From Blasia pusilla (taxonomy: Eukaryota): a DNA stretch of 64,000 nt. The DNA lies in contig CM114271.1 in NCBI GenBank assembly GCA_050084515.1, positions 32,178,001-32,242,000 on the forward strand, given 5' to 3'. This document shows positions 11,289 through 63,000 of the stretch, one piece after another; position 1 is the stretch's first letter; each line of letters starts with the position of its first letter. The notes under the pieces were generated by a model that saw nothing but the letters and a program-made list of their open reading frames with translations, was not told the DNA's origin and searched no databases. The position numbers were made by a program, and so were the translations under genes.

Positions 11289-11387
11289 GCTTAAAACTTC
11301 AGTTCCAACCAGGGAATTAGCAATTCTACAACTTGGAACAAGGACTTGGAGGTGACAAACCTACATGACAAGACCTCCCTATAGGGA

Positions 11388-36138: not shown

Positions 36139-36991
36139 GGGGGTTGGTATTATGGCAGGAGAGAGTGTAAGAGAGGAGAGGAAGAGAGGAGAGTCTCTCT
36201 TCTAAAAGAAAGGTAGAATCAGCCTCCTCTCTTCAAAATTTTTTTGCTTTCAAATTCAAAAAATCTTCAGAAGGGAGTAGCAAGTGGACCACATTCGGGC
36301 AAAGCTAACCTTCTTTTTCCAGGCTTGGAAAAACAAGTAGACATCAGAAGACCACTGCAAACATCCTACCATCACTCTCCATGTGAGCCCAATTTTCTTT
36401 ACATTGCTAGTCTAAGCCAACTCTACAGTAAGCCGCATTGAGGCATATTATTGTTGGAGGACCATCGGCAGATAATTTGACCAGTATAAACAATTTCATC
36501 TCAATTAAAGGTTCTAATAGAGACTCCGACTATGGTGTCAATAGACTAATGTGCCCTTCAGGGTTTAACTTATCAAAAGATCTGGTTGAAATTATGGATT
36601 GTTGATGTAGGACTCCCACCCTCACCATATTGGGTAGGAGGGCTCTTCATGCAACAAGGCATGAAATATCCCATCTGATCAATACTATTCTATCAGATGG
36701 GATTTTCCAAAAAAAAATGAACACTGACCATTGTGCATAGTTGAAGACTTTCATGACAGTCTTGGATCTTTAGAAAGTGTAGGGTTCTTGAAAAATCGGG
36801 TGCATGGAGTCTACCATGGATTGCTGTACGTTTGACAACTTGGTTTCACCATTCTATCTGCCACTAGGAAATGTATGCATCAAGAAGAAAATTTGCAAGG
36901 AAGGACTAAGAAGACAATGGAAGCAACAAGTTGGTAGCCGTCATGAGTGAAGAGGGAGATTGATAAGTAACCAGGTCCATTCATTCAGACA

Positions 36992-37411
36992 TGCAACCCG
37001 TCGGAAATCGATATGTTGCACCCCTTGCAACCTATCACAAGTCGACAGGTTGCACCTCTTGCAACCCGTCGGAATCCGACGGGTTGTAAGACTGTACCGT
37101 CTCTGGTTTAGGTTATCTTGCAACCTGTGGGACTCCGACGGGTTGCAAGACTAGACTATCTGCAAAAACCGATTCTACTCTTCAGTTGGAGTGATTCTCA
37201 ACCTTTCGGAATCAAACGAGTTATCAACCTCTCGAACCAAAGATTAGAGTCCAAGAAAGCACGCACACCACATCAAAAGAATCGAAGGGAACAAATTGGT
37301 CTTGGTACAGTGAAAGGTTATCAAGCAAAATATAAATGTGAAAAGATATTTTCAGGTAAAATGTAAATGTGAAAAGATATCATGCAACCCGTCGCTTTTC
37401 GAAAGATTGCA
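36992..37411. repeat. Cluster 1 of 29-bp palindromes
   Basis: Copies start at 36992, 37026, 37060, 37119 and 37383; best copy TGCAACCCGTCGGAATCCGACGGGTTGTA (37060-37088). Confidence 0.9.
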
Positions 37412-38438
37412 AAAGCAAAAAATCCTCACCCCAATTTCGGAATGTGATCAAAAACAACATCAGACAATAAGCGTGAAGAGAATTGGATGCGTTAAAAAAA
37501 TCCACTTTATTTAAAACTGCTTGAAAAACGGTTATTTACGTTTGATTTCATGAAAATTTAGTGTATGATCTCTTCAACCTCGTCATCTACAAAAATGTTC
37601 CTAACTCTTGCCGGTTCCTCTAGAAGAGACTTCTCAGGGCTAGTCAGAGGCTCCTCTATACGATTGTAGATTGGAATTCAGAAGGAAGGAGGATCCGAGA
37701 GCCTTGTCTCCCTAGGAGCCCCATATCGGTCCCATGTGTCCCCAGAAATGACCCAACGCATGCCCCGACAGCTGATTTTGAAGCTTCTGCAAACGGAAAC
37801 CCATCCATATCAATATTTGCTCCTTCCCCGGGTCACACATGTCAACTCCAAAATGCTTAAAATCCAAGGCACCTACACTCACTCGTCATCATCCGACAGC
37901 TCCTCTAGAATCACCGGTGGCCTTGCCCTTCCAATTTTTGGGATCATTGGTAGTGAGGATGGCGTCACAACGAGTGGCTCCAATGCAGATTTATTGATCT
38001 ATGCACGCGACTTGTAAACGCCCATCACCCTCTGGTAGTCAAATTTTGCCTCCCGGAAAAGTGCAAACAAGGTGTTCCGAGACTCAAGGCAAAGAATGTT
38101 TTGACTACTCTGCCAAGCAAATCTAACACTTGCCCCAGAAAGACCCACCAAATCACATGGCGTCGAACACAACTCCATCAAGATTTGCATGAGTGCGGGT
38201 GATTTTTCCCTCCCTCCAAGCATTGGCACTCCTTCCTCGACGAAAATACCCGGGGGTGAATTGGACATGCTATTAAGAGTGAATCCATCTACATCTCGAT
38301 CAATAGGATGCTGTACCTCAAAACCCTCAAACCTTTGCTCTGGTCTGACAAAAAAATGAACGTAGGAATATTCCATTTGCAAAGAATAGAACTCTAAAAA
38401 TCACCTAAGAATCGATGGGAGGAAGAGGTCTTCAAGGA

Positions 38439-38692
38439 GCAACCGACAGAATCCGACGGGTTGCAAATGTGAGATGTCATCGAGGTAATTTGCGTTTAGG
38501 GGAGGGGGATGCAACACGTCAAATTCAGACAGATTGCTCACTAACCATGGATGTGCAACCCGTCTGGTTCCAACGGATTTCATAGGCCATGGCAGGGTCC
38601 ATCTGCAACCCATCAAAATCCGACGAGTTGCCCAACACACCCCAAAACCCGACGAGTGGGTGATGCATCCCGTCCGACTCTGACGGGTTGCA
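38439..38692. repeat. Cluster 2a of 29-bp palindromes
   Basis: Copies at 38439, 38510, 38554, 38604 and 38664. Confidence 0.85.
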
Positions 38693-38709
38693 CAAGGCCT
38701 GTTAGGATC

Positions 38710-40310
38710 AAATGGTAAAATGGTAAATAGATCAAGCCCGTGGGATCCAAAGGGTTAAAAGGCTAAAAAACACGTTACAAGTCAGTCAATCACTGACTCG
38801 GAAAAAGATCCTAAAGACCTTCTCTTGGATATTGCCAAGAGCACTTGAGCGATGAATAATGACATCCCTAATATAACAATCTAAATCATAAGGTACCAGA
38901 TATAGTAAGGAATAGATATTCTCCACATCTATTTTATGAGCTAGTCTAATCTCTTCATACCTTGGACATGTAATAAACACATGATCTTCATCCTCAATAT
39001 TTTCTCTGTCACATAAACTACAAATTTGTTCACTTCTATCAATATTAAGCCATCGTCCTTCTTCATTTCCTAGAGATCAAGAGATCTCACCCTTGCAATA
39101 TAAGAGAAGGTCAAGTAAAGAGCTTCAGCCTCTAGAGGAAGACAACCTGTTTCCGCAAGAAGAATAGCATACGGAGTTTGGTTTCTTATACCCAATTCTT
39201 CTTATAGAGAGATCTTTTGCACCCTGTCCATGCGCTCCCAACCTGTCTTCTTACAACTAGGGCCCCAAAATTGGGTCCCACATAAGATCACTGGCAACAC
39301 TAAGCTCCTAAAGAAGAAATTCATAAGATCCCAAGACACAAGATGAGCTCTTCTACACCAATTTAAAAATGAATATAGAGCTTTATAACCAGCTTCTACT
39401 CTCTTTTGCATGCAGAGTGCCCAACTATAGTCATGAGAGAAATCAATGTCTAGATATTTGCAACTCTTCACTTGTTCTAATTGAAGACCTTTGTAAAAGA
39501 ACGAGAACTTGGATCTAGTACCCACTATAATAACTTTAGACTTCTCCATATTAACCTCCATCTGATTCTGCGTACAAAAACTTGCCAAAGTGTTGAGGCA
39601 TTTTTGTAAACCAATGCCATCACATGCTAGTTACATGATATCATTTGCATACAATAGAGCTTTGATGACAAAGTTCTCCAAGCTTGACACTTTCACTATC
39701 ACATTCCTCCAACCATTTTTTGATATCATCTATGAAAAGATTCACAAACTCAAGAGATCTTGAGCACTATCGCAGTCATTCAAGGTTGTCCTCTCTCCCC
39801 TACTCTATTTGGAGTTTTGGTAAATGGTAAATTTGATCTTGGCCCGAACAGAATGGTACTACGCGGCCACGGTTGCTAGGAGATTTGGTGGTACTCCAAT
39901 GGCTTGTAGCCTATCTCATAAGAGCTTACGAGGTAAGATATCAAAATGTTTCTTGAAATCGATGAAACCACAAAACAAAGCTTTTCCATTGCCCTTAGAT
40001 TTCTCCTATAAAACACGTAAGACCAAGATATGGTCGATGGTGTTGTATAGTGGGCGAAAACCAGCTTGGACTTGTGCTCTCTTTTGGAAAGACTATGTCC
40101 ATGCGATCAACTTTGACTCCACCAATTTCCCAAACAGCTTGGCAAAAACACTACCCACCATGATAGTGCGATAGTTTGTCACCAAGTCCTTCCTTCCTGG
40201 TTTTTGAAGAGAAAAAATCTCCCATAACGACAAGGTAGAAGGACAATATCACCCAATACTTTGGTGAGGATCGGTCCGACAGAATCTCCTCCCCACTTGA
40301 GAAGTTCAAT
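38710..40310 (-). mobile_element. Internally deleted 3' part of LINE family C
   Basis: (ATGGTA)n-like tail at 38710-38727; FCTQNQMEVNMEKSKV; RT remnants; paralogous to 40812-42370. Confidence 0.88.
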
Positions 40311-40811
40311 ATGGTAAATGGTAAATAGATCAAGCCCGTGGGACCCAAAGGGTCAAAAGGCTGAAAAACATATTACAAGTCATTCATTCACTGACCCTGA
40401 AAAAGATCCTTAAGACCTTCTCCTAGCTACAGCCTAGAGCAGTTGAGCGATGAATGATGACGTCCCTAAGATAACAACATAAATCATAAGGCACTAGCTG
40501 TAGTAAAGAATAGAAATTCTCCACATCTATTTTATGAGCTAGTCTAATCTCCACATCTATTTTATGACCTCAATCGTTGTTATCTCTGAAAAGAATTGAT
40601 TCAATTCAAAATGTCCCCACCAACTGTTGTAGCCCACAAATTATGGTAAATGGTAAATGGTAAATAGATCAAGCCCGTGGGACCCAAAGGGTCAAAAGGT
40701 TGAAAAACACATTACAAGTCATTCATTCGCTCACCCTGAAAAAGATCCTTAAGACCTTCTCCTAGCTACACCCTAGAGCAGTTGAGCGATCAATAATGAC
40801 GTCCCTAATAT
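40311..40811 (-). mobile_element. Two short 5'-truncated LINE family C 3' ends (40311-~40565 and 40643-40811)
   Basis: Each begins on + with ATGGTAAATGGTAAATAGATCAAGCCCGTGGGACCCAAAGGGTC. Confidence 0.88.
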
Positions 40812-43800
40812 AATGGTAATGGTAATGGTAAATAGATCAAGCCCGTGGGACCCAAAGGGTCAAAAGGCTGAAAAACACATTACAAGTCATTCATTCACTG
40901 ACCTTGAAAAAGATCCTTAAGACCTTCTCCTAACTACAGCCTAGAGCAGTTGAGCGATGAATGATGACGTCCCTAAGATAACAACCTAAATCATAAGGCA
41001 CTAGCTGTAGTAAGGAATAGAAATTCTCCACATCTATTTTATGAGCTAGTCTAATCTCTTCATACCTTGGACATGTAACAAACAGATGCTCTTCATCCTC
41101 AATATTTTCTCCATCACATAACCTACAAATTCGTTCACTTCTATCAATTTTAAACCATCGTCCTTCCTCAATTCCTAGCCTATGAGACCCAGTTCTATGA
41201 CGTGCGATAATATGTCGTAAGAACGTGGAGATCCCTGTAAGTAGATATCCTTGTTCACAATATACAAGCATAGGATTAACATGAAGTTGATAAAACTCCG
41301 TTTTGGTGCCTGGACTGCTCCAAATGATGTTGAGAGATTGCTTCTGTAGATCCTCACGGAGGGCCATCGGTTTCAAGTCCCAATCGCGTTCTGCCACATT
41401 CCACTTTGAAGACCAAGTCACCACATCCGCTATCCACCCTATGGAACGTGTGGCTCGCAAAGCTTGATGAGGGAGGCGAGAAACATCAAGAGATCTCACC
41501 CTTGCGATGTAAGTGATGGTCAAGTAAAGAGCTTCAACTTCTAGAGGAAGAAAACCTGTTTCCGCAAGAAGAATAGCATACGGAGTTGGTTTCTTACACC
41601 AAATTCTTCTTGTAGAAAGATCTTTTGCACTCTTTCCACGCGCTCCCAACCTGTCTTCTTACAACAAGGGCCCCAAACTTGGGTCCCATATAAGATCACC
41701 GGCAACACTAAGCTCTTAAATAAGAATTTCCTAAGACTCCAAGACACAAGATGAGATCTTCTACACCGGTTTTAAAATGAATATAGAGCTTTGTAACCAG
41801 CTTCTCTCTTTTTGCATAAAGTGCCCAACTATAGTCATGAGAGAAATCGATGCCTAGATATTTGTAACTCTTCACTTGTTCTAATTGTAAACCTTTGTAA
41901 AAGAACGAGAGCTTGGATCTAGTACCCACTATAATGACTTTAGACTTCTCCATATTAACCTCCATCTGATTCTGGGTACAAAACCTTGCCAAAGTGTCGA
42001 GGTGCTTTTGTAAACTAATGCCATCACGTGCTAGTAATATGATATCATCTGCATACAATAGAGCTTTGATGACAAAGTCCCCAAGCTTGACACCTTCACT
42101 ATCATATTCCTCCAACCACATTTCGATATCATCTATGAAAACTCCAAAAAGTGTAGGGGAGAGAGGGCAACCTTGAATGACTCCAATGGTACTCAAGATC
42201 TCTTGAGTTTGTGAACCTTTGATCTTGGCCCGAACGGAATGGTATAACGTGGCCACGGCTGCTAGGAGATTTGGTGATACTCCAATGGCTTGCAGCCTTT
42301 TCCATAAGAGCATGCGAGGTATTGTATCAAAAACTTTCTTGAAATCGATGAAGCCGCAAAAAAAAGCTTAGGGTCAAGAGAAAGACCATCCTAATCCTCA
42401 CATTTTCCATTTGCTAATCTTCTTAGTTGAGTCATACAGTCTGGTATGCCTTCACAATGCGCCATAGATGTAGCATGGGGAAAGAAGTAGAGCTTTTCAA
42501 CAAAAGATATCAAAGACTTGGAATCAAGAGTAGGTTTTGAATACCGTACTAGTTACCATCTCCAAAATGTTTTGGGATCATCATACAACTCCCTTGTTAA
42601 GGACTCTTGCTTCCGCCGTAAGAAAGCTCGTTTCTTAGATGTCACCAAGTGTTTGTAAAGATCCCTCATAATTAGCCGACTTTGGATATCCAAAGATTTG
42701 TCCATTGATCTTATCCTTGCTTGCTTTCATTCACAGTCAAACCACCCATTACAAGGCAACCTCCTAACACTTCTATCCCTGTGTCACGAAAAGAACTTGG
42801 ATGGAGTATTTTTTAGCAATTCGGTTAGTTGCAAACTTGCCGTGTGTGGATTAGGGCTCTATACAAGTGGCTCCGAAAGTTTAAAAATGCTCTGTCAAAG
42901 GATTTATAGAAATATTTGAAGAGATTCTAGACAACAAACCATCCTTTGGTTCTTTGAGAAGAGGAGCAATCAAGGAATCACTAAATTCGATAAATTGAGC
43001 AAAACGTGTGTGAGCATTGAAATCCCCGACTAGAAAGACTTTACCTTTGCTTTGGTATTTGAGAACATCCCCAACAAGTCGATAAAACGTTTGACTTCGA
43101 TTGCAAGTGTGCGTTGAGTAGATAAGCATGGACAGTGGTGCAAAGTAACAAACTGCCAAATAACAATAAGATCCCCCAACTAAACCAAGACGTAGCCAAT
43201 GATATTGGCCCCCGATATCTTGATCTTCTACATGTATCAAAGGTAGAAATTGTGACCTGATGAAAGTAGCAATACCTCCATAACCCCTTCTTGCCGTTTG
43301 CCTTCTTTGGTTCCATCTCGATCCCACCAAAGTAAACCCTTGCATCTCTGCAATAGTATTGCTCTCATATTCCCAAGTCTCCACAATATTGATGATGTTT
43401 GCCATATCCCAAACTGGTAGAGCAATCACATACTTTATTGTTGAAAGACCGCTTCTATTCCACATCAACACTCTAAACTTCTTGGATTGCTAGGTTGATA
43501 ACTCTGTTTTTCTTTGGGTAACAATTCCTCGACCATCGCATAGATAAGCAATAAAACCTGCTTCTTAATCCTCTTTAACCTTTGCAAGCTCCTTTCTCTT
43601 AGCTTCAACTTGTTGAGGTGTAAGATCAAGATCCTACCATATCCTCCCTCCTTTGAGAATGGCCTTGTTAGCCATGGCAGCATCATGTTGAGTTTGATCA
43701 ACAAACTTAAGTAGAATAGCACGAGGTTGTGTTCCCGTTTTCCCAATGCGGAAAGCTTGAGCCAAGTCCGGGTTGTGAACATGAAGTGTATCAACCAAGA

Positions 43801-45277
43801 ACTTGGTAAGAACACTCTTCACCTCTTCATTCTCTATTTTCAGCAATCTTGAGATTCTCACATTCTTTCCTACTTGAAAATCGGTTTTCTTTTTCTATCT
43901 TTTGCTCTTGACAAAAAGAGATATGAGCAACCTTTGTAGCTTCAGCATAAGATTTCATTTTCACTTCTAAAGTTTCAACAACCTCATGCAATCTTGAATT
44001 ATAGGGAGTAGTCGCAAATGATGATGCCTTCTCTTGAACATCCACAACAGATTTGGAAAGATCCAATATCACACTAGAGCTATCTTTTAACAGCTTCTTC
44101 AAAACCTCTTGCGTTGCCTTCAACTCTTGGATTTGAATATGTGCAAGGTTCAATTTAGAAGTTTGTACCTTGAATTCTTGTCAAATCTCTTTCAATTCAT
44201 GTAAGACCACTTGCACTAGATTCAAGATTTCGTCTTGAGTAGTCATAATGTAGTTGATTTCACAACATCCTAGATATTGCACGACCTTCAATCAAGTAGA
44301 GCAGAATCTCCAACACCACACAACTTGTGCTCTAGGAGTTGATTGTACTTAAAATTTTCAAGCCTAGGGCGCCTCTTTACACTCCACATTTTCTTAAGAT
44401 CTCAGCTTCATATAAGACTCCACTTGAAAGATATGGCCTCCACAAGATTCACATGTGAAATCTTCAAATGTGGAAGAGTAGAAACTCAAATCTCTTACAA
44501 CTTCGTCTCTCTAAAGTGGTTAGCCTTGAAATTTCTAAGGCTTGGGTGTCTCTTCATACGTCACGTTTTTTCAAGATCTTAGCTTCAAATGGCACTCCAC
44601 CTAAGAGATATGGCCTTTGCAAGGCCTTCCTCAAATGTGGAAGAGTAGAAACATAAATCTCTCACAACTTTGTCTTCGTAACTTATATGGCCTTGAAATT
44701 TTTGAGGCTTTGGAACCTCTTAACATTCCACATTTTGGAAAAATATCAGCTTCATTTAACACTCCACCTAAAAGATATTGATACCGCAAGATTCAGATCT
44801 GAAATCCTCAAATGTGGAAGAGCAAAAACTAAAATCTCTTACAACTTTTCTATGTAAGTTAGTTAGCCTTTAAATTCTTAAAGCTAAAGCGTATCTTTAC
44901 ATTTAACGTTTTCTCAAAATTTAATTCATGTAATACTCTACTTGGAAGATATGGCCTCCATAAGATTCAAATCTGAAATCCTCAAATGTGGAAGAGCAAA
45001 AACTCAAATCTCTCTCAATTTCGTCTTTGGAAGTTTTTTGGCCTTGAAATTTTCAGGACTAGGGCGCCTCTTTACATTCCACGTTTCCTAGAAATATGAG
45101 CTTCATGTGATACTCCACTTGAAAGATATGGCTTCCGTAAGATTTAGATCTAAAATCCTCAAATGTGGAAGAGCAGAAACTCAAATCTCTCACAACTTCG
45201 TCTCTATAAGTCGGTTGGCCTTGAAATTCTTAGGGCTTGGGCGCCTCCTCACACTCCATGTTTCCTCAAAATCTCAA
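40812..45277 (-). mobile_element. LINE family C (RTEX-like, inferred), near full length with internal deletions
   Basis: Tail at 40812-40833; RT GVIQGCPLSP and LLYADD; RHRTGSH...CRLC...EDEEH...C; APE ETW and GDFN; ORF1 at 43490-44246, disrupted. Confidence 0.9.
44345..45277 (-). repeat. Tandem array of ~170-178-bp monomers (~5 units) 5' of LINE ORF1
   Basis: Anchor AAATGTGGAAGAG recurs at about 44466, 44634, 44810, 44983 and 45161. Confidence 0.88.
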
Positions 45278-45279
45278 TG

Positions 45280-45365
45280 TGCAACCTATTAGAGTCTGAT
45301 GGGTTGCAAGACCCACTCCCTTTCTGGGGTGTGTCAAGCAACTCGTCGGAGTCCGACGGGTTGTA
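45280..45365. repeat. Cluster 2b of 29-bp palindromes
   Basis: Copies at 45280 and 45337. Confidence 0.85.
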
Positions 45366-47122
45366 GGAAAAAATGAAACCAGAATGCAGGAAAAAAAGAA
45401 AAAATTTGCAAAAGTTTTTCAAACTTACCAAGACTTGGTTTGTACCCAACCTTAGCAGGTAGTTGTTCTTCACTACCCAAGGCAATCCTGTTTGCCACTT
45501 CAACGATCGCTTCACGCACTGCAAGTTGGAGAGCTCATCCTCGCTACCTCTGGAAGAACAAGGAAACATCTCGTGTCACTCAGATACGCGTTGGCAAAGG
45601 AGAACATCAACGCGATCTAGTCATATTTGAAGGGAATGTTCCAATCCAAGACTGTGTCGCGTGGGTTCTCTGCCCACAATCTAAACCCCGACGGTAGATG
45701 TGCAATGAGGAGGTCAACTGCAACCTCCTCAGGTACCCCATTGACGGTCCATGGGGCATGGCCGTTCCGCAGAAGCTTTCATCCCAAGAGTGTCAGCTTC
45801 TCCAAGGCAAGCGTGGACTCTTGTGTGGAGAACTTCTCCAGTTCTTCAAGCAGCAATGTCTGATGTAGCAAGATGGTGATTTTTGATGCTCCATCCCTGT
45901 GCTTCCCCAACGATGAGGGAGTATAGACTATATTCTTGTCCCCCCTTTCAAAGGAACCCGATGTCTCCCTCTTTCGCTTCTCGCGAGAGGGGTGCCTGCT
46001 TGTTGGGGTCTCCGTGACCTCAGAATCCACACGATTAATTTTTGAGGCCTCCTATTGCCACCCTTCTTGCCTCGATGATCCTGCCTCGAATGGTTTGGGG
46101 GCCTTCACCTTGAATTTCAACCCTGTAGTGGACTTGTCTTTTGACAAAATCTCCGCCGCCTCAATCGCTTGTGCCTTGGCATCCCTTTTGAAGTTCTCCT
46201 CTGTCTTGAAAATGTTTGGGATGTCCTCATCGCCAGCAACTAGCGCATTATACAAGTCTCGCATTATTGGATCAGTCATCTTATTGGGATCATTGAAGTC
46301 CAACCAGATTGGACAGTTTAGCACTTCCCAAGGGCTCATGTCGAGTGCCATGTCCATGTTGTATATGGAGAATCCTTCGCCATACGGAGTATCTGTCCAT
46401 ACCTTAAGCGCCACCGGGAATTTTTGACCTCATGTGTCAAAAATTTGAACACCATCCTCTGCGCAGCTCGATGGTGGCTGAATCGACAGCTTGATCTTGA
46501 AGCTCCTTCTTCTTTTCTGCGAAGTCCCATTTCTTCGGGTCGCCAATCTCCTCGTCGACATCCAAGGTTGCATATGGACAAAGTTTGTGTCTGTGGATAT
46601 GTCCATGTGCGTCCTATGGAAGGACTTTTCCGTATGGGCCCCACCTTTCCCTTCTTTCTCATTCACCTTACTTGCATTCGCATTCCATACTCCCCCATTT
46701 CTTCCTCCCTCCTCCCTCATTGCTCTTCTCATACTTGCCTTGCCTTCTATCATGGACTAAAAGTGTGGGTCCCACCTCTTGGAATCCATGTCCGTCCTAA
46801 GGAAGGACTTGTCTGTTTTTGTGCAACCATGTCGGCATCCCCCTGCAGAAGAATCTGGCTCTTGAACATCATCTTGAACCCGGGGTTCTTCGCCGACTTA
46901 TCTCGGATGTTATTCAACCACAATTCGTACTCCTCCTCCGAAACCGGTTGGAATTCTCTGCAGGTCGCCTTGAAGGCATTCAATCTTTGACTTTCCCAAT
47001 AAGCGCAAGGCATCCCAGAAGGACCATTCTCATAGCCAATGGGAAATGATTGGGTCCGACACCCCTCGGGGATAGTGTGTCGATTTTTCTCAGCCTCCGT
47101 TCCCTCTAGCCTGATCTCCTCT

Positions 47123-47278
47123 TTCGAACCGTTGGAGTATGATGGGTTGCACAAACTGCAATTTCGACCGGTGAGTTTGACTGGCCCTGCAACCTGTCAG
47201 AGTTCGACGGGTTGCATATGCGGTAGGAAAGGCCCTAGTTTAAGTCGTTTGCAACCCGTTGGAGTGTGACGGGTGACA
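47123..47278. repeat. Cluster 3 of 29-bp palindromes
   Basis: Copies at ~47123, 47188 and 47250. Confidence 0.85.
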
Positions 47279-47602
47279 AGCACAACCGAGTTATACACAC
47301 GAAGTTGTGAGAGATTTGAGTTTATGCTCTTGTAGATTTGAGGATTTCAGATCTGAATCTTGCTGAGGCTATAACTTTGAGGTGGAGTGTCATATGAAGC
47401 TGATATTTGGAGGCAACGTGGAGTATAAGGCGGCGCCTTAGCCCCCAGAATTGCAAGCACAACCGAGTTATACACACGAAGTTATGAGAGATTTGAGTTT
47501 CTGCTCTTGTAGATTTGAGGATTTCAGATCTGAATCTTGCCGAGGTCATAACTTTGAGGTGGAGTGTCATATGAAGCTGAGATTTGGAGGCAACGTGGAG
47601 TT
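47279..47602 (+). repeat. 1.8 units of the 177-bp monomer 5' of LINE ORF1
   Basis: CACAACCGAGTTATACACACGAAG at 47281 and 47458; homologous to the reverse complement of 45100-45277. Confidence 0.9.
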
Positions 47603-47646
47603 TAGCGAGATTATACTTTCTAGGATGTAGTGAAGTCAAGTATAGG

Positions 47647-48402
47647 ATGACTACTCAAGACGAAATCTTGAATCTAGTGCAAGTCGTCTTGCACGAATTG
47701 AAAGAGCTTCGACAAGAATTCAAGGTGCAAACTTCTCAATTAAACCATGCACATATTCAAATCCGAGAGTTGAAGGCAACGCAAGAGGTTTTGAAGAAAG
47801 TGTTGAAAGATAGTTCTAGTGTGATGCTCGATCTTTCCAAATCCGTTGCGGATGTTCAAGAGAAGGCATCATCCTTGGTGACTACTCCCAATAGTTCAGG
47901 ATTGCATGAGGTTGTTGAAACTTTAGAAGTGAAAATGAAATCTTATGCTGAAGCTACAAAGGTTGCTCATATCTCTTTCTGTCAAGAGCAAGAGATAGAA
48001 AAAGAAAACCAATTTGCGCGTAGAAAGAATGTGAGAATCTCAGGTTTGCCGGAAACAGAGAGCAAAGAGGTGAAGAGTGTTGTCACCAAGTTCTTGGTTG
48101 ATACACTTCATGTTCATAACCCGGACTTGGCTCAAGCTTTTCGCATTGGGAAAACGGGCACACAACCTCGTGCCATTCTAGTCAAGTTTGTTGATCAAAC
48201 TCAACGTGATACTGCCATGGCTAACAAGGCCATTCTCAAAGGACGGAGGATATGGTTGGATCCTGATCTCACACCTCTACAAGTCGAAGCTAGGAGAAAA
48301 GAGCTTGCAAAGGTCAAAGAGGCTCAAGAAGCAGGTTTTATTGCTTATCTACGCGATGGGCGAGCAATTGTTACCCGGAGAAAAAGAGAGTTATCAACCT
48401 AG
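47647..48402 (+). CDS. LINE ORF1 protein (coiled coil plus RRM-like domain)
   Basis: ATG at 47647 conserved with the minus copy (44246); RRKNVRISGLPE...AFRIGK...PRAILVKF...IWLDPDLT. Confidence 0.88.
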   Translation: MTTQDEILNLVQVVLHELKELRQEFKVQTSQLNHAHIQIRELKATQEVLKKVLKDSSSVMLDLSKSVADVQEKASSLVTTPNSSGLHEVVETLEVKMKSYAEATKVAHISFCQEQEIEKENQFARRKNVRISGLPETESKEVKSVVTKFLVDTLHVHNPDLAQAFRIGKTGTQPRAILVKFVDQTQRDTAMANKAILKGRRIWLDPDLTPLQVEARRKELAKVKEAQEAGFIAYLRDGRAIVTRRKRELST

Positions 48403-51400
48403 CAATCCAAGAAGCTGAGAGTGTTGATGTGGAATATATGAGGCCTTTCAACAACAAAGTATGTGAGTGCTCTACCAATTTGGGAGATGGCGGATATTAT
48501 CAATATTGTGGAGACTTGGGAACATGAGAGCAATACTATTGCAGAGATGCAAGGGTTTACTTTGGTGGGATCGACATGGAATCAAAGAAGGCAACGGGCA
48601 GGAAGGGGTTATGGCGGTATTGCTACATTCATCAGGTCTCAATTTCTACCTCTCATTCATCTAGAAGATCAAGATATCGGGGGCCAATATCATTGGCTAC
48701 GTCTTGGTTTGGCTGGGGGATCTTATTATTATTTGGCAGTTTGTTATTTTGCACCACTCTCCATGCCTATCTACTCAACACGCACTCACAATCGAAGTCA
48801 ACCGTTCCATCGACTTATTGGGGATGTTCTCAAATATCAAAGCAAAGGTGAAGTCTTTCTAGTTGGAGATTTCAATGCTCGCACACGTACTGCCCAATTT
48901 ACCCAATTCGGTGATTCCTTGATTTCTCCTCTTCTCAAAGAATATGAGGATGGTTTGTGGTCTAGAATCTCTTGGATCTTTCTACAAATCCTTTTGACAG
49001 CATTTTTAACCTTTGGAGCCACTTGTAATTTGAAAGTTCTTAATGGAACCTCTCATTTTCCCAACTCTCACTCCAATACGTGTTTCTCCTCTACCGGCGC
49101 TAGCACCATCGATTATCTTCTGTCCTCGCCCGCTGATAGCTCTCTTATCTCTAAATTTGATATTCTAGAACCTCAGCCTGAATCAGATCATGCACCTCTT
49201 TTGTTTACTCTCTCACTATCAAAGGCCATTCCTCTCTCGACATGTCAATCTATTTTAGCTTCTCCCAAGTTTTGCTTAGATCCTGGTAAAAAAGATCTTT
49301 ATATGCTACATTTACAAGAACTCTTGACTCGCATTGTATGGAGCCTGGATCCAAACACGGCAAGTATGCAACTAATTGAATTGCTCAAAAATAGTGCATC
49401 TAAGTTCTTTTCACGCCACAGGGATAGAAGTGCTAGGAGGGTGCCTTGTAATGGGTGGTTTGACTCTGAATGCAAGCAAGCAAGGGCACGATCAGTTGAT
49501 AAATCTTTGGATATCCCAAGTCGGCTTATTATGACGAGCCTTTACAAATACTTGGTGAAATCTAAGAAACGAGCTTTCTTGCGGCGGAAATAAGAGTCCT
49601 TGACAAGGGAGCTACATGAGGACCCCAAATCATTTTGGAGACGGTTAGTAGTACGGTCTTCAAAACCTATTCTTGATCCCAAGTCTTTGATATCTTTTGC
49701 CGAAAAGCTCTATTTCTTCCCCGATGCTACATCTATGCCACGTTGTGAAGGAATACATGGCTTATTCTCTGAAGGAGAGGTGATGACTCAACTTAGAAGA
49801 TTGGCGAATGGTAAATGTGAGGATTTGGATGGTCTTTCTATCATCTGTGAAAACTCCAAGTGGAGTAGGGGAGAGAGAGGGCAACCTTGAATGACTCCGA
49901 TGGTACTCAAGATCTCATGAGTTTGTGAAACCTTTGATCTTGGCCCGAACGGAATGGTATAATGTGGCCACTGTTGCTAGGAGATTTGGTGGTACTCCAA
50001 TGGCTTGCAGCCTATCCCACGAGAGCTTACGAGGTATAGTATCAAAAGCTTTCTTGAAATCGACGAAACCGCAGAACAAAGCTTTCCAATCCCATTGCCC
50101 TTAGATTTCTCCCGTAAAACACGCGAGGCCAAGCTTGATATGGTCGATGGTGTTGTATGTTGGGCGAAAAACCAGCTTGGACCCGTGCTCTCTTTTGGAA
50201 AGACTCTGTCCATACGCTCAACTTTGACTCCACCATTTTCCCAAACAGCTTGGCAAAAACACTACCCACCATGATAGCGCGATAGTTTGTCACCAAGTCC
50301 TTCTTTCCCGATTTGTGAATAGGAACAATCTCCCGTAGCGACCAAGTTGAAGGAAAACCATAGATAGCGGCATCACCCAATACTTCGGTGAGGATCGGTC
50401 GAATAGAATCTCCTCCCCACTTGAAAAGTTCACTAGAAGGACCATCCAAATCCGCACATTTACCATCTGCTAATCTTTTTAGTTGAGTTGTCACCTCTGC
50501 TTCAGAGAATAAGCCCCGGCCGGTATTCACGGACAGTGGTGCAGAATAATAAACTGCTAGATAGATAAACAACAAGATCCCCCGACCAAACCAAGACGTA
50601 GCCAATGATATTGGCCCCCCGATATCTTGATCTTCTAGATGTATCAAAGGTAGAAATTGACACCTGATGAAAGCAGCGATACCGCCGTAACCCCTTCCAA
50701 CCCGTTGCCTTCTTTGGTTCCATGTTGATCCCACCAAAGTGAACCCTTGCATCTCTGTAATAGTATTGCTCTCATGTTCCCAAGTCTCCACAATGTTGAT
50801 GATGTCCGCCATCTCCCAAACCGGTAGAAACCTATTTTTCTTTCCTTTCTATCTCTTTGCTCTTGACAGAAAGAGAGATATGAGCGGCCTCTGTAGCTTC
50901 AGCACAAGATTTCATTTTCACTTCTAAAGTTTTAACAACCTCGTGCAATCCTGAACTATTGGGAGTAGTCGCCAATGATGATGCCTTCTCTTGAACATCC
51001 GCGACACACTTGGAAAGGATCCAACATCACACTAGAGCTATCTTTCAACACCTCAGAGCTTCGAAGGTAACCAACTTCCACTCTCTCTTGCACGCAAAGT
51101 GCCCAACTATAATAATCACGAGGGAAATCAATGCCTAGATGGCTTGTACAAATTGAAAGCATCGATACGGCCGTAACCCTTTCCAACCCGTTGCCTTCTT
51201 TGGTTCCATGTCGATCCCACCAAAGTGAACCCTTGCATCTCTGCAATAGTATTGCTCTCATGTTCCCTAGTCTCTCATGTTCCCAAGTCTCGTGCAATCT
51301 TGAACTATTGGGAGTAGTCGCCAATGATGATGCCGTCTCTTGAACATCCGCGACACACTTGGAAAGCATCTAGCATCACACTAGAGCTATCTTTCAACAC

Positions 51401-53085
51401 TTTCTTCAACACCTCAGAGCTTCGAAGATAACCAACTTCCACTCTCTTTTGCACGCATAGTGCCCAACTATAATAATCACGAGGGAAATCAATGCCTAGA
51501 TATTTGTAACTCTTCGCTTGTTCTTATTACTAGCACGTGATGACATTAGTTTAGAAAAATACCTCGACACTTTGGCAAGGTTTTGTACCTAAAAAAAGAT
51601 GGAGGTTAATATAAAGAAGTATAAAGTTTTTTTAGTGGATACTAGATCGAAGTTCTCATTCTTTTACAAAGGTCTACAATCAGAACAAGTGAAGAGTTAC
51701 AAATATCTAGGCATCGATTTCTCTAATGACTATAGTTTGGCACTTTGCATGCAAAAGAGAGTAGAAGTTGGTTACAAAACTCTATATTCATTTTTAAATC
51801 GGTGTAGAAGAGCTCATCTTGTGTCTTGGGGTGTTAGGAAGTTCTTATTTAGGAGCTTAGTGTTGCATGTGGTCTTATACGGGATCCAAGTTTGAGGCCC
51901 TAATTGTAAGAAGACAGGTTAGGAGTGCGTGGAGAGGTTGCAAAAGAGATTTCTACAAGAAGAATTGGGTGTAAGAAACCAAACTCCGTACGATATTATC
52001 CATGTGGAAAGAGGTTGTCTTCCTCTAGAGGCTGAAGCTCTTTACTTGACCATCACTTACATCGCAAGGGTGAGATCTCTTGATGTTTCTTGCCTTCCTC
52101 ATCAAGCTTAGCGAGCCACACGTTCCATAGGTTGGATGGCGGATGTGGTGACTTGGTCTTCCAAGTGGAATGTGGCGGAACGCGATTAGGACTTGAAACC
52201 GATGGCACTCCGCGAGCATCTACAAAAGCAATTTCTCAACATTATTTGGAGCAGCCCGGGCACCAAAATGGAGTTTTATCAACTTCATGTTAATCCTATG
52301 CTTGTATATTGTGAACAAGGATACCTACTTGCAGGGATCTCCACGTTCTTATGTCATATTATCGCACGACATAGAACTGGGTCTTATAGGCTAGGAATTG
52401 AGGAAGGATAATGGTTTAATATTGATAAAAGTGAACGAATTTGTAGGTTATGTGAGGGAGAAAATATTGAGGATGAAGAGCATGTGTTTGTTAGATGTCC
52501 AAGGTATGAAGAGATTAGACTAGCTCATAAAATAGATATGAAGAATTTCTATTCTTTATTACAGCTAGTGCCTTATGATTTAGGTTGTTATATTAGGGAC
52601 GTCATTATTCAACTCAAGTGCTCTACGCAGTAGTTAGGAGAAGGTCTTTAGGATCTTTTTTTGGGTCAGTGAATGAATGACTTGTAATGTGTTTTTCAGC
52701 CTTTTGACCCTTTGGGTCCCACGGGCGTGATCTATTTACCATTTATCTTTCCAAGATATTTAAGATGTCTTGATTGACTTACAATTGTTAATATCATGGT
52801 GTGAACATCAATTTCTTACTTCTTCTAAATTAGAGTTTGCAGGCTTATTATGTCAGCTTGAGCGTAAGCCATGGCAAAATATATAGGGAGAAGGAATAAG
52901 TTTCACCTTGGATAATAAATGGTGTCTTCCATTGTAACTCTACCTTTGCAAGCTCTCTCAAAATCAGTTCCTGAACTAGTGAAACAACATTTTGTGTCAT
53001 GATTTGCTAGCATACTACCTTCGCATTTGGTGAACAATAAGGTAGTTCAAGAGTGTGCAGAAGAAGCTCTCAAAGAGTCTCAGAT

Positions 53086-54824: not shown

Positions 54825-57800
54825 CTATTGCACGTGTTCCAAATCCGCCTCCGCAATCCAAGTCGCCTCCTTCACATGGTAGCCCTTCCATTTGACCAAG
54901 TATTCATACTTGTTGGCCCGACGTCTCGAACGTAAGATGGTCTCCACCTCGAACTCCGGCTCCTCATTTACGATGACAGGGTGCGGTCTCACCACCTGTC
55001 TCCGCTCGAAACGTCCATTATCTTGAAGGTATTTCTTCAACAATGACACAGGAAAGGTCGGGTGAATCTTGAACTCGTCCGGCAACCTCAACGTATACAC
55101 ATCCTCAAACGGGTTTGCCACAATCACATACGGTCCAAAGATACTTGGCGGATGACCCGCAGACAACTCTTTCGGAAGAGTGAGATTCTTGAGACTCAAC
55201 CACACTTGTTCTCCAACTTGGAATCGTACTTGGCGCCGACTCTTGTTAGCATGCTTAACGTACCTCATTTGAGCCTTTGCAAGACTTCGCCTCGCGCTCT
55301 CTTCTTGTTCTCGCATCTCTACCAACAAACTTTTTCGTGCCGCTTGTCGTGTTCGTGCCAATGTAGTACCCTTCGAAGGGGTAGATCAAGAGGCCCTTCG
55401 GCTCGTCCATTTGCCAGGAGAAACAGAGATTCTCTTGTTGCAGAATGCTTGGTCGAGTTTAGCAAAGTATTCCGCCATGCTTTGCCACCTAACCTAATCG
55501 CGTTGATCAAGACGACATAATTCCTCAATCTTCGATTCACGATAGAGTTAACCTTTTCATCTGTCCATCCGCTACGTGGGTGGAAAGCCGATGAAACTCA
55601 GCTTGGTCTTAAACCTTCGAACAAGTGCTTCGAAAGCATCTGGTAAACTTTGATCCCGATCTGAAACAATGCTCCTCGGCAAACCATGAGCACGCCACCA
55701 GCTATCGAGGAATAGTTCTTTGTCAGATATCGCCGTTCAGAATCCACCGTCGCACGAATCTCGCCAACTTGCTAAACCGATCAACAATCACAAGTATAGC
55801 GTTGTATCCCCCACATTCCGGAAGACTCATGATGAAATCCATACTCACACTTTGCAAGGGTCCTTCGGGGATCGGCAAGGGATGCAGCAAGCCCTGTTTC
55901 TTATCATAAGAGACTCTATTCGTTTGGCAGGTCACACAGGTCTTCACATATTGAGCAACATCCTCCTTCATGTTGGGCCAAAAAGAACCGCCGAGAGCGG
56001 CTAGCGTAGATTTCTCTCCTTTATGTCCTGCCAAGGGCCCGTCGTGACATTCCGCTAACACCTTGGTTCGCATCCTGCCTTGCCCTACATAGATCCTACT
56101 CTGTTTGAACCTTAATAAACCGTGCCTCAAACTTATGTTGGCCATCTTCTCCCCCTGCTTCAACTTCCTCAAGTATTCCCCTACTTGAGCATCCTTCATA
56201 TATCCCTCATGAATCCTTCTCTCCAGATCTGTTTCCTTAGGGAACATTGCTCTCAAGGCCTGTGTCGTCGATGGCATGTGTTCCTCCTTGCGACTTAACG
56301 CATCTGGAATCACATTATCTTTACCTCGCTTGTGGATCAACTCTACATCCATCAGCACCAAAGTATCATACCACCGCAGTTGTTTCGGCGTCACTCGATC
56401 CTGGGTCTCAAAATACTTGAGTGATATATTATCGGTGAATACTCGAGTCCTGTGGAGCCCTAGATAATGCCGCCACTTCCTCAAGCAACGTACCACCGCG
56501 AACAACTCTTTTTAGTGAGTAGGCCATCTCCTTTCAGTGTTGCTAAGCTTCTTGCTCTCATATGCCACCGGTCTCCCTTCTTGCACCAACATTCCTGCAA
56601 CCGCAAAATCACTAGCATGGGTATGCACTTCGAACGGTTTGTCAAACTCCGGCAGCTTTAACACTGGTTCCTGCGATAGAATCTGCTTCACTCGGTTGAA
56701 TGCCTCATTAACTTCCTGGGTCCAAGTCGTGTTGGCAAACTTTGTTGTCCAATCCGTGAGAGGTCTCACAATTCCCGAAAAAGTTTTTCACATAAGTACG
56801 ATAAAATTGCACCGCACCTATGAACCTCCTCATCCCCTTTACAGTGGATGGGGGTTCCCACTCGGAAATCGCCTTTACCTTTTCCATGTCCGGATCGACG
56901 CCATCTCACGACCGACCACGTGACCCAAGAATTTGATCTTACTCAAACCAAATTCGCTCTTCTCTCGTTCGATCTGGTTGATTTGCCCTTAGCTTAGACA
57001 AGACCGCTCTCACATGTCGAACGTGCTCCTCTAGTGACTTCGAATAGATAAGTATGTCATTGATATAGATGATAACATACTCATCCATTTCCTTGTGAAA
57101 AATGGAGTTCATCAATGTGGTGAACGTCGGAGGCGCGTTACATAAACCGAAAGGCATCACTACAAACTCAAAGGAACGTATCTCGTCCGCACGATCTTCT
57201 CCACATCGCCTCGGCAATCCAAATCTGGTAATATCGACTTCAAGTCAATCCTACTGAAATATCTCGCTTTGCCACCCGACCTATCAAAGAGATCATCTAT
57301 CCTCGGAAGAGGATAATTGTTCGAACCGTCACTTTGTTCGGTGCACGGTAATCAACACACTGACCTCATCTTTCCATCCTTCTTCTTTACAAAGAGAACA
57401 GGTGCTCCATAAGGTGACTTGCTAGTCCTAATGTAACCCTTTTCCAAGAGCTCACTTAACTGCTTTTTCAACTCAAGAAGTTCCTCCTGATTCAACCTAT
57501 ATGGTGCTTTTGAAGGCGGTTGGGAACCGGGTATGATCTCTATCTTATGATCTACGGCTCTATGCGGCGGTAATTCAGTTGGAAGCTCATTTGTCAAGAC
57601 ATCCTCAAACTCCTTGACCACTTCCTGGAGTGGTTCTGGGATTCCCCTTGAAGCAGTGTCCTGATCTCTGCGTATACTACTTGTAGCCTCCTCCACTTGT
57701 CTCATCAAGCAGAGAAATCCATCCTCCAACTCAGTCATGCTCCTCCTTGTGATCGAGTTCACCAACTCCATCTTCGCTGGAACCTCACGGACCAACCGCA

Positions 57801-60050: not shown

Positions 60051-63000
60051 AAGCCTGCGGTACCACGCGCCAAGCTTGGATCCACGAAATCCCATCTCGT
60101 TCGGAAGATGACATGGCGCACAATTGCGCACATGATCCTTCCAAACCATACCATCTCGTCCCTCCAACATGAGGACTCGGTCGGTAATACCTCGCGCACA
60201 CGTAGGATCGTGGCCTGCGATGACATCTAGCGTCGTGGGTGCCGCTGCTTTGTAAATACACGTAATCTCCGAGGATGAAACCTCCTAATCCCTGGGCGAT
60301 AACCTCCTCCACGAATGGTCGCGTACCTCAATGTATCTCTATCTTTGGGCAATAGCTAAGTTCTCAAAGGCCATAGGCATAACTCTACGAAAAACTTCTG
60401 CCCTTTGAGAACATGCTTGCACCCACACATCTGGATCATCAAGATCTAACACCTCCGCCATGTCACGTCAAATCGCTGCAGGTAAATCGGCTCTCTCCCA
60501 AAGAGCAAAAGTACGGTGAAAATGACGCCAAGGATGCTGCCGACTAAAGGGATAACCCATAGCCAACCATGGCAAGCTGTGGAGGTCCCACTCCCTCAAT
60601 TGTCCTCGCCGCAAGCCATACTTGCGCAATCCTCTCTTCACCGTCTGTACCACTCTCTCCGCCAATCCATACGCCTCGGGATGATCCTAGGCGTGGTGCG
60701 GTGATCTATCGGCCTTTGATCACACAAGGCACTGAAACTCTCCCCTGAACTCGGTACCTGGTCGGTCAACACCTCCGGTGCACCAAAGTGACTAAGCACC
60801 ACGATCTAGAAACGCATAAAATTTGTTCCTCGCTCGCCTTGTCGGTAGTGCCACCAACTCTATCCACTTGGAGAAATGCTCCACCATGACCAACACGTAC
60901 CTATGATGACGCCCTGTCAATGGCAAAGGTCCCAAAGTCTAAACTCCACCGATAACCTAAACCCATAATCGGCAAAGGATGTAACTGCGGAGTGGGAGCA
61001 TTGAAGGATGCTCGCACTCTATCACATACCATACATCCGGCCCTGGCTGCTGTACCCGGTATGCATGCGCGCCACCAATCTTGAACACAGAGTAAGTTGT
61101 AAAGGTACGCTTTACTCGAAATGTCCCAACTCCTCATGGGCATGTCGCACTACACGTGCTCGCTGGGAAGGATGAGGTACCACTCGTATCCTACCATCTC
61201 CCCATATCCGCAAAATGTGAGTCCCCTCCCACCTGAACCTCTTGGCTCTCTATAGGATCCGATCCCGCTCCCTACCACTCACTGTACTCGCAATGACGCC
61301 AGTGCGCAAGAAGTCCACAACCTCCACGTCGTCATGGATATCACGACCACCTGTCGCCTCCTCACTGACCTCTGGATCCAAAGACTCATCATCCAACCCC
61401 ACCTGTGGAGTCATCACATGTGGCTGACCTGCCATAGTCAACCAACAAACATAGGCAGATGCATGCCAACCGGGCACCATCTCCTCATCACTCTCTGCGT
61501 GCCATCGAGCTCCCGTGACGTCTCTCTGACTCGGACATGGGTTACGACTCAACCCATCCGCATCCTGGTTCAGCCGACCTAGCCTATGAACCACCTCAAA
61601 CTCATACTCCTGTAGTAATAGAGCCCATCTGGCAAGCTTTCCAGTAAGCTTGTCGGACTCCATCAACCACCTCAACGGCTGATGATCAATGATAAGTGTG
61701 AAAGGGTTGCCAAATAAATAGCACCTAAAATGTGCCACGGCCCACACTGCAGCCAAGCACTCTCCCTCATAGGAGTTGTACTTCGCCTCTGCAATGTTGT
61801 TCGATCGACTCGCATAAGCCACAACGAACTCCCTCTCCTCGTCATCCCTCTGGGTAAGCACTGCTCCTAGACCCAACATGCTCCAATCCGTATGTAATCG
61901 AATGGGCGACCCCTAACCGATCTCTGTAAAATGGGTGAGGGCGTCAACTGTCCTTGAGCTCTGAAATGCTCGCTCCCGATCATCTCCCCACAACCACACG
62001 ATCAAGTCTCGTCAACAAGGTCAAAGACTTTGCGATCGCACTAAAACCCTTGACATACCTGTCGATAGAAGTTCGCCACCCAAGAAATGCTCGGACTCGA
62101 CTCTCATCATCGTAGGGCGTGGAATCTGCGCAATAGCCTCTACCTTCGTCTGCCTGAACGCCTAACCCACTCGGGTATATGGTGTGTCCCAAGTACTCAA
62201 TCTGCTCTGGAAGAATCTGACTTGCCTGGATGTAACTTCAGTCCATGTAAGCTGCAATCGCGAAACACCTCCTCCAAGTGTCGCTCATGCTCCTCAACCG
62301 TGGGAATCAAGATAAGAATATCATCTATGTAACATCGTACAAAATCCAAGCCCGTAATCCTATCCATCACTCTCTGAAACTCCGCAGGAGCGTTCTTCAA
62401 CCCAAATGGTAAGAACCGCCACTGATACAAGCAATCTCTCCCGAACCGATCTATCCCCCAGAATGTTGTCTTCTCCCTGTCCTCCAACCTGATAGGAAGC
62501 TTATGATAGCCAGCACGGAGATCTAAAGTACTGAAGATCTTTGCATGCCCTACCGCATCAAAGATCTCCTCAGGAGTAGGCATGGCATACCGATCTGACC
62601 TCGTTTGTCGGTTGATATGACGGTAATCTCCACACATCCGCCTATCCGTCCAATTGCCATACATATCCTTCTTTTGGGCATGACTGTGGCAGATGCATAC
62701 TCCCCATGTGACAACTCCACAAGTCCTGCCTCCAACAAGTCCTGACTCCTGCTCTGAATCAAGGCTCGCTCCATATCAGAATATCTATAGGGTCGATGAA
62801 AGATTGGCGTATCACTAGCCAACTCAATCCGTATCTCGGGACCCTTCAGCGTACCCAAGTCTCTCATACTGAAGGCAAAACAACTGACATGCCCTCTCAG
62901 AAACCTATGAACTTGCCGTCGCTCTCCTCCTATCAACTTGAGACCTATCACAGGCTCCCAAGTCTCCATCGTAACCTCACTCGGAGAGGACGCAACCTCC

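Follow-up and report, generated by a model that had tools for sequence, protein, structure and literature searches.

Does a transposon-dense stretch of DNA conceal a split gene for a DNA-modifying enzyme? The stretch, 64,000 nucleotides (nt) of the Blasia pusilla assembly GCA_050084515.1 (contig CM114271.1, positions 32,178,001 to 32,242,000 of the forward strand), is called the window throughout, and all coordinates below are counted from its first letter. An earlier note, made from the sequence alone, had proposed on the minus strand a hidden spliced gene with a beta-class N4C/N6A methyltransferase-like domain, its two halves separated by an intron filled with long interspersed nuclear element (LINE) sequence. 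The unannotated minus-strand gene content is indeed there: the segment 47077-45423 is homologous to R1sor_013312, a protein of the liverwort Riccia sorocarpa. We read this segment, with a probability of about 0.72, as the non-functional, transposon-broken relic of a gene in an uncharacterised family whose sole detectable member is R1sor_013312. Three in-frame stops, three or more changes of frame and an inserted repeat, all in the upstream part alone, indicate a decayed pseudogene and not a hidden working gene. A protein product from the locus is unlikely.

The homology emerged when 45500-46429 was translated through its stops (written as X) and searched with phmmer against 1.84 billion representative proteins. 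A single match reached E≤0.001, namely R1sor_013312 (KAL3687003.1; E=9.6e-13), a hypothetical protein of 488 amino acids (aa). Aligned to the window with tblastn, this protein gave five collinear minus-strand pieces, running from 47077 to 45423 and spanning its residues 106-486. Residues 106-126 fall at 47077-47015, the most N-terminal and weakest piece (E=0.022), which contains a stop. Residues 188-215 (46506-46423) and 222-321 (46420-46139) have a joint E value of 6.5e-11, and residues 371-440 (45766-45554) and 439-486 (45569-45423) one of 4.5e-9. Identity is 30-36% in conserved blocks, and the relic and the Riccia protein have the same landmarks: a PWE..NCPIW.DF block, a basic linker, and a series of IDLLL.DLP, LVSDSGC..I and W..H.. 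segments. The PWE..NCPIW.DF block lies in a conserved N-terminal domain (residues 188-321; 46139-46506, minus strand; BLASTP, 36% identity over 77 aa). The linker (45770-46138, minus strand), visible in the read-through translation and the alignment, is poorly conserved and includes REKRKRE in the window and PPPKRRK in Riccia. The C-terminal alpha/beta region (residues 371-486; 45423-45766, minus strand) carries VDLLIAHLPS and matched with BLASTP E values of 4e-10 and 0.002. Judged by these alignments, the relic is a member of an unnamed R1sor_013312-like family, and the comparison shows that the family of R1sor_013312 is conserved beyond a single species. R1sor_013312 is the lone member of its own 90%-identity cluster. 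A word-index protein search among lengths near the query's returned R1sor_013312 alone, the same kind of search with the query P0001 had no match at lengths near its own, and metagenome contigs gave 143 pattern matches to an alignment of the two family sequences and viral contigs 38, none of them a relative.

The relic would have been broken in several ways, one of them point decay. Two of its in-frame stops are in the linker (TAG at 46054-46052 and TGA at 45781-45779) and the third is in the C-terminal region (TAG at 45619-45617), where a frameshift near 45570 is also present. The tblastn pieces start in frames 1, 0, 1, 1 and 2, which requires at least three frame changes, one of them inside the N-terminal domain between 46423 and 46420. 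Unlike the open frame of the Riccia model, the copy in the window is interrupted by stops, frameshifts and insertions. The suspicion that this copy is inactive is supported. The peptides quoted in the earlier note do all lie on the minus strand, but joining them into a single reading means crossing the three stops and three or more changes of frame. VDLLIAHLPSG...VLDWN is within the stop-to-stop frame 45617-45778 (minus strand), and FSFANAYLSDTRCFLVL is in the same frame, beyond the TAG at 45619-45617. WVVKNNYLL falls in the open reading frame (ORF) 45249-45575, which differs from the frame of those two peptides, so a frameshift has to be assumed. HFFVR...CLE is inside a clean 133-aa ORF farther downstream, at 37999-38400 (minus strand). 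The long N-terminal region that had been proposed is supported, in that a homology-backed relic does lie there. The long ORF 46750-47196 reached at best an insignificant E value of 0.06 against R1sor_013312, and the homology piece at 47077-47015 is in a different frame from that ORF. Two plus-strand ORFs run antisense to the relic, 45927-46427 (166 aa) and 46322-46990 (222 aa); we take them for chance open frames because the Riccia homology sits on the minus strand.

The relic also contains an insertion. The interval from 47015, where one piece ends, to 46506, where the next one starts, is about 320 nt longer in the window than R1sor_013312 would require. Public DNA contigs of the same organism have a summed depth of 460-1500 in two bins covering 46437-47098, of 4-15 in adjacent unique bins and of about 2.8 where a contig is exact and single-copy, and 27 contigs of one DNA run diverge sharply at 46831. 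We take these observations to mark a high-copy repeat, about 325 bp long and inserted at about 46507-46831; its left edge is approximate, set at the point where homology to R1sor_013312 resumes. Inside it, a 32-nt segment is directly repeated (46602-46633 and 46785-46816), and Rfam at its gathering thresholds had no match anywhere in 36500-47700, the repeat included. For the unique parts of the region, a depth of 4-15 compared with about 2.8 per copy suggests only about 1-5 genome copies. Neither blastn nor tblastx found a second copy in the window, and no Riccia paralogue was detected. The description of the family as repeat-borne therefore finds no backing here.

Downstream, the relic ends at what looks like an exon boundary. 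A candidate splice donor, GTAAGT at 45428-45423 (minus strand), follows CAA GTC TTG in phase 0. R1sor_013312 ends (KVTKT and a stop) two residues past the aligned donor, with its V opposite GTA. An exon end near 45450 had been claimed, and the position agrees with both the GTAAGT and the end of the sole homologue. The donor may thus be conserved here, in which case the Riccia model may run into the intron; the alignment suggests that the R1sor_013312 gene model could be cut short at this point. The LINE-filled gap described in the earlier note is likewise present, with LINE sequence occupying 38718-45276 (about 6.6 kb) between the relic and the next ORF. It is 73-92% identical to a second element, LINE B, at 47277-52777, and its contig depth reaches hundreds. 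On the minus strand it matches PF03372 (Exo_endo_phos, E=1.5e-5) and PF00078 (RVT_1, E=1.5e-24). With an apurinic-type endonuclease and a reverse transcriptase on one strand and repeated copies, 38718-45276 can be assigned by sequence to the non-LTR (long terminal repeat) retrotransposons.

The likely landing site of this LINE sequence is rich in palindromes and lies immediately downstream of the apparent donor. A perfect-type palindrome of about 29 nt (TGCAACCCGTCGGA..TCCGACGGGTTGCA) has 11 strand-matches with at most three mismatches in the 64 kb, where none is expected, and all of them fall in four places. These are an array at 36990-37150, copies at 38401-38717 between the 3' end of the LINE sequence (LINE A2, below) and the downstream ORF, two copies at 45277-45400 between the donor and the 5' end of LINE A1, and three copies at 47120-47276 just upstream of the 5' end of LINE B. 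The two inner arrays abut the ends of the LINE A sequence, and 45278-47153 is enclosed by a 34-nt inverted pair. The palindromes may belong to the LINE 5' end, may be a site that LINEs prefer as a target, or may mark the borders of another element. Once the LINEs are discounted, the donor and the downstream ORF are about 0.4-0.5 kb apart.

Several points weigh against reading 47077-45423 as a decayed relic of a conserved family. R1sor_013312 is a single homologue, so that conservation amounts to one pairwise comparison, and the most N-terminal homology piece is weak. Introns instead of decay may, in principle, account for some of the breaks, as contigs of a presumed-RNA run matched only the repeat parts of the region and those of a further run matched nothing there. 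No contig among the joints listed for four runs connects 45.4 kb to 38.4 kb, a result uninformative on expression. We nevertheless favour the broken relic, which would be the product of an ordinary event, the shredding of a gene by retrotransposons in a repeat-rich, plant-like genome.

What did the parent gene encode? At about even odds, we infer a nuclear protein with a helical N-terminal domain, a basic linker and a C-terminal alpha/beta domain. The last would resemble the half of a class I methyltransferase from motif IV onward, without the catalytic (D/S/N)PP(Y/F/W) loop, and the protein would act as a binder or scaffold and not as an enzyme. The support for a methyltransferase is of one kind, model-based look-alikes in the ESM Atlas for both halves, and we treat these as leads. 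By Atlas features, the look-alikes of R1sor_013312 residues 350-488 include clusters of PF05175 and PF01170, scoring 0.90-0.91, and one of PF01555, scoring 0.86. A low-confidence Atlas model of residues 355-480 returned methyltransferase families in nine of ten rows, with template modelling (TM) scores of 0.50-0.54. For the 37999-38400 ORF, the named families listed came down to two clusters of PF01555, scoring 0.84. We put the chance that the C-terminal domain of the family has an alpha/beta fold like that of methyltransferases at about even.

Other results weigh against this fold or are uninformative. By the tool's own rating an Atlas score below 0.9 is a lead only, and all scores of the 37999-38400 ORF are below 0.9. 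Pfam hmmscan at E≤10 found no family for seven pieces of the region or for R1sor_013312, NCBIfam and PHROGs gave nothing relevant, and the family profile matched no PDB sequence. We also built an alignment and hidden Markov model (HMM) of PF01555-like domains, taking 23 full-length matches to the domain from five bacterial genomes, and ran it with --max (all HMMER filters off) on 1642 six-frame pieces of the window together with R1sor_013312. The Riccia protein scored -0.5 bits, and the 37999-38400 ORF was unlisted at E≤1000. With hhalign, residues 387-485 of R1sor_013312 were placed on columns 1-94 of this template (P 0.075) and residues 8-117 of the ORF on columns 93-222 (P 0.022), which is the order proposed in the earlier note. 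This tiling loses weight because the controls score alike: scores at least as high arose in 10 of 150 shuffles of R1sor_013312 and 8 of 150 shuffles of the ORF, the reversed R1sor_013312 part outscored the real one, and the ORF ranked 6th of the 83 window ORFs of 100-180 aa. AlphaFold2 models had a mean predicted local distance difference test (pLDDT) score of 33 for R1sor_013312 with the relic alignment and 34 for the ORF alone and are unusable.

The DPPY position reads HLPS in the window (VDLLIAHLPSG) and DLPT in Riccia (IDLLLMDLPTH), where the consensus of the 23 template sequences is VDLIFADPPYN. Motif I would be shortened in the downstream ORF, whose CDLVGLSGAS lacks four positions of the template's GDVVLDPFAGSGTT. 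The region resembles the beta-class N4C/N6A methyltransferases (PF01555) in the block order of hydrophobic and motif-like segments and in the Atlas look-alikes of both halves, and differs from them in a motif IV that is HLPS or DLPT and not (D/S)PPY and in what would be a truncated motif I. Since no profile match is significant and the motifs are degenerate, the sequences do not qualify as members of PF01555, and the proposed family assignment is not supported; every profile test was negative or at background. As for MT-A70 (PF05063), the general Pfam scans at E≤10 had no match, and a DPPW-type motif is absent.

The remaining question is the downstream ORF. This 133-aa frame at 37999-38400 (minus strand), EKSPALMQILMELCSTPCDLVGLSGAS...CLE, served as the C-terminal half of the proposed methyltransferase-like domain and has no detectable relative. 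A word-index search found none among proteins of 73-233 aa in the protein collection, its sole matches among PDB sequences were to fibronectin and to one uncharacterised protein, with E values of 1.5-1.9, and R1sor_013312 has no similarity to it, so that the Riccia protein lacks a counterpart. Kinship with phages was considered and set aside. Twelve Gordonia-phage records matched by tblastn at E values of 2-8, and the phage Yeezy gene at the matched position is without a methyltransferase domain, which marks the matches as chance.

A little short of an even chance, in our judgement, is that this ORF is unrelated to the relic, being a chance frame or another relic, and that the chain of motifs is a coincidence selected by a reader with three frames and 7 kb to choose from. 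A length of 133 aa is not rare in the window, where 52 ORFs reach 130 aa or more, and on the PF01555-like template five unrelated ORFs of comparable length equal or exceed this one. The shuffles that reach the ORF's hhalign score and the lack of any family match or relative point the same way. Speaking for a connection, no other sizeable ORF on this strand comes between the donor and this one when transposons are discounted, and the sole named families listed among its Atlas look-alikes are PF01555, as predicted from the upstream half. Its Atlas 'recognition' value of 2403 also exceeds 2300, a value that 9 of 100 shuffled proteins reach.

That the ORF is the next exon, supplying an S-adenosylmethionine (SAM)-binding half, is a tentative reading to which we give clearly less than an even chance. 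In its full form, which we think unlikely, relic and ORF are two exons of one gene for a circularly permuted, catalytically dead PF01555-like fold, with motifs IV-VIII upstream, motifs X and I-III downstream and the intron later filled by LINEs. The two parts are on the same strand and in the right order. The relic offers the GTAAGT donor at 45428, and the stop-to-stop frame of the ORF includes, upstream of the peptide quoted from it, a polypyrimidine-AG acceptor. This best-looking acceptor (TTTTTTTGTCAG followed by A, with its AG at 38346-38345 on the minus strand) is, however, out of phase with the phase-0 donor in the ORF frame, as worked out by hand from the sequence; the mismatch carries little weight because the copy has frameshifts. 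The gap once free of LINEs would shrink to about 0.4-0.5 kb made up of palindrome repeats. The Riccia protein stops at the donor position, leaving its alpha/beta domain without a SAM-binding half, and the contig depth of the relic's last part and of the ORF is alike, at 10-15. Two exons are also favoured by the hhalign tiling of columns 1-94 and 93-222 and by the Atlas, which likens the ORF to PF01555 and the C-terminal part of the Riccia protein to methyltransferases, PF01555 among them. Yet no profile method gives a significant match and hhalign is at background, HLPS or DLPT stands in the place of motif IV and GLSGAS is what would be left of motif I, the ORF is dissimilar to R1sor_013312 and without relatives at 73-233 aa, and both AlphaFold2 models are unusable. 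A predicted complex of R1sor_013312 residues 355-488 with ORF residues 8-133 scored 0.01, a value that speaks neither way. Extended to a whole lineage, the same idea would have liverworts possess an unrecognised family of nuclear proteins with a C-terminal circularly permuted amino-methyltransferase fold, extremely diverged and degenerate (DLPT for DPPY), its SAM-binding exon missed in the Riccia annotation and both halves of a dead copy kept in the window, split by LINEs in the intron; this we regard as doubtful.

It is very improbable that the family was carried by a mobile element, bounded for example by the palindrome arrays flanking both unique segments: palindromes do occur in the window only at the edges of these two segments, the 34-nt inverted pair surrounds 45278-47153 and depth hints at a few paralogous copies, but the 64 kb hold no second copy and depth allows about 1-5, the R1sor_013312 cluster has one member and its search found itself alone, Pfam scans of the window pieces and R1sor_013312 reveal no transposase, integrase or similar domain, and the palindromes may equally belong to, or attract, LINEs.

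Returning to the broken relic as the preferred reading, we compared its family with the two eukaryotic amino-methyltransferases named in the earlier note. Bdelloid N4CMT is a eukaryotic N4-methylcytosine (4mC) methyltransferase (PMC8885841, PMC10406627), and Marchantia DN4MT1a/b cluster with prokaryotic N4 methyltransferases and carry TSPPY (bioRxiv 10.1101/2021.02.12.428880). Like the relic's family, DN4MT1 is eukaryotic and from a liverwort; it has TSPPY and a recognisable domain, neither of which is present in the relic or its Riccia relative. Titles and abstracts on the PF01555 family name and eukaryotes mentioned no such plant family among the matches listed, in a literature search that was not aimed at R1sor_013312. 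If the fold lead is true, liverworts, where Marchantia 4mC biology is known, would have a degenerate and probably non-catalytic relative of the amino-methyltransferases. METTL14 is a catalytically dead partner with a methyltransferase fold, and a degenerate motif IV in a retained scaffold fold would be analogous to it provided that the fold guess holds. Since there is no sign of DNA-modifying activity, searches for 4mC or N6-methyladenine (6mA) are not warranted on present evidence.

The elements that surround the relic can be described further. LINE A1 (40315-45276, minus strand) comprises a 5' monomer array, ORF1, endonuclease, reverse transcriptase and a duplicated 168-bp 3' unit. LINE A2 (38718-40311, minus strand) is a 5'-truncated member of the same family, with a ATGGTAAA-type tail, and matches LINE B at 85-88% up to the 3' end (blastn). 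LINE B (47277-52777, plus strand) stands head to head with the LINE A sequence, about 2 kb away, with the relic between them. Tandem monomers of 167-177 bp form the 5' ends, 3.7 units in LINE A1 (44464-45276) and 1.8 units in LINE B (47277-47601; 177-bp rows), and resemble the monomeric promoters in the 5' untranslated region of mouse L1. The LINE 3' ends have short-repeat tails of the ATGGTAAA type, and in A1 the 168-bp unit is in tandem; the positions of these 3' features across the LINEs are 40643-40981, 38711-38797, 40306-40395 and 52665-52744. Within 49800-51600, parts of LINE B, 49839-50084 and 50528-51415 among them, align to LINE A in inverted orientation, so one copy has internal inversions or nested fragments. 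The window as a whole is eukaryotic and dense in transposons, its large ORFs being fragments of LINE endonuclease and reverse transcriptase and of gypsy-type RNase H and integrase. On the minus strand, 55723-56511 and 61250-61912 hold fragments of gypsy-type RNase H and integrase zinc-binding domain, and on the plus strand 11385-13529 is another reverse-transcriptase ORF, 714 aa long.

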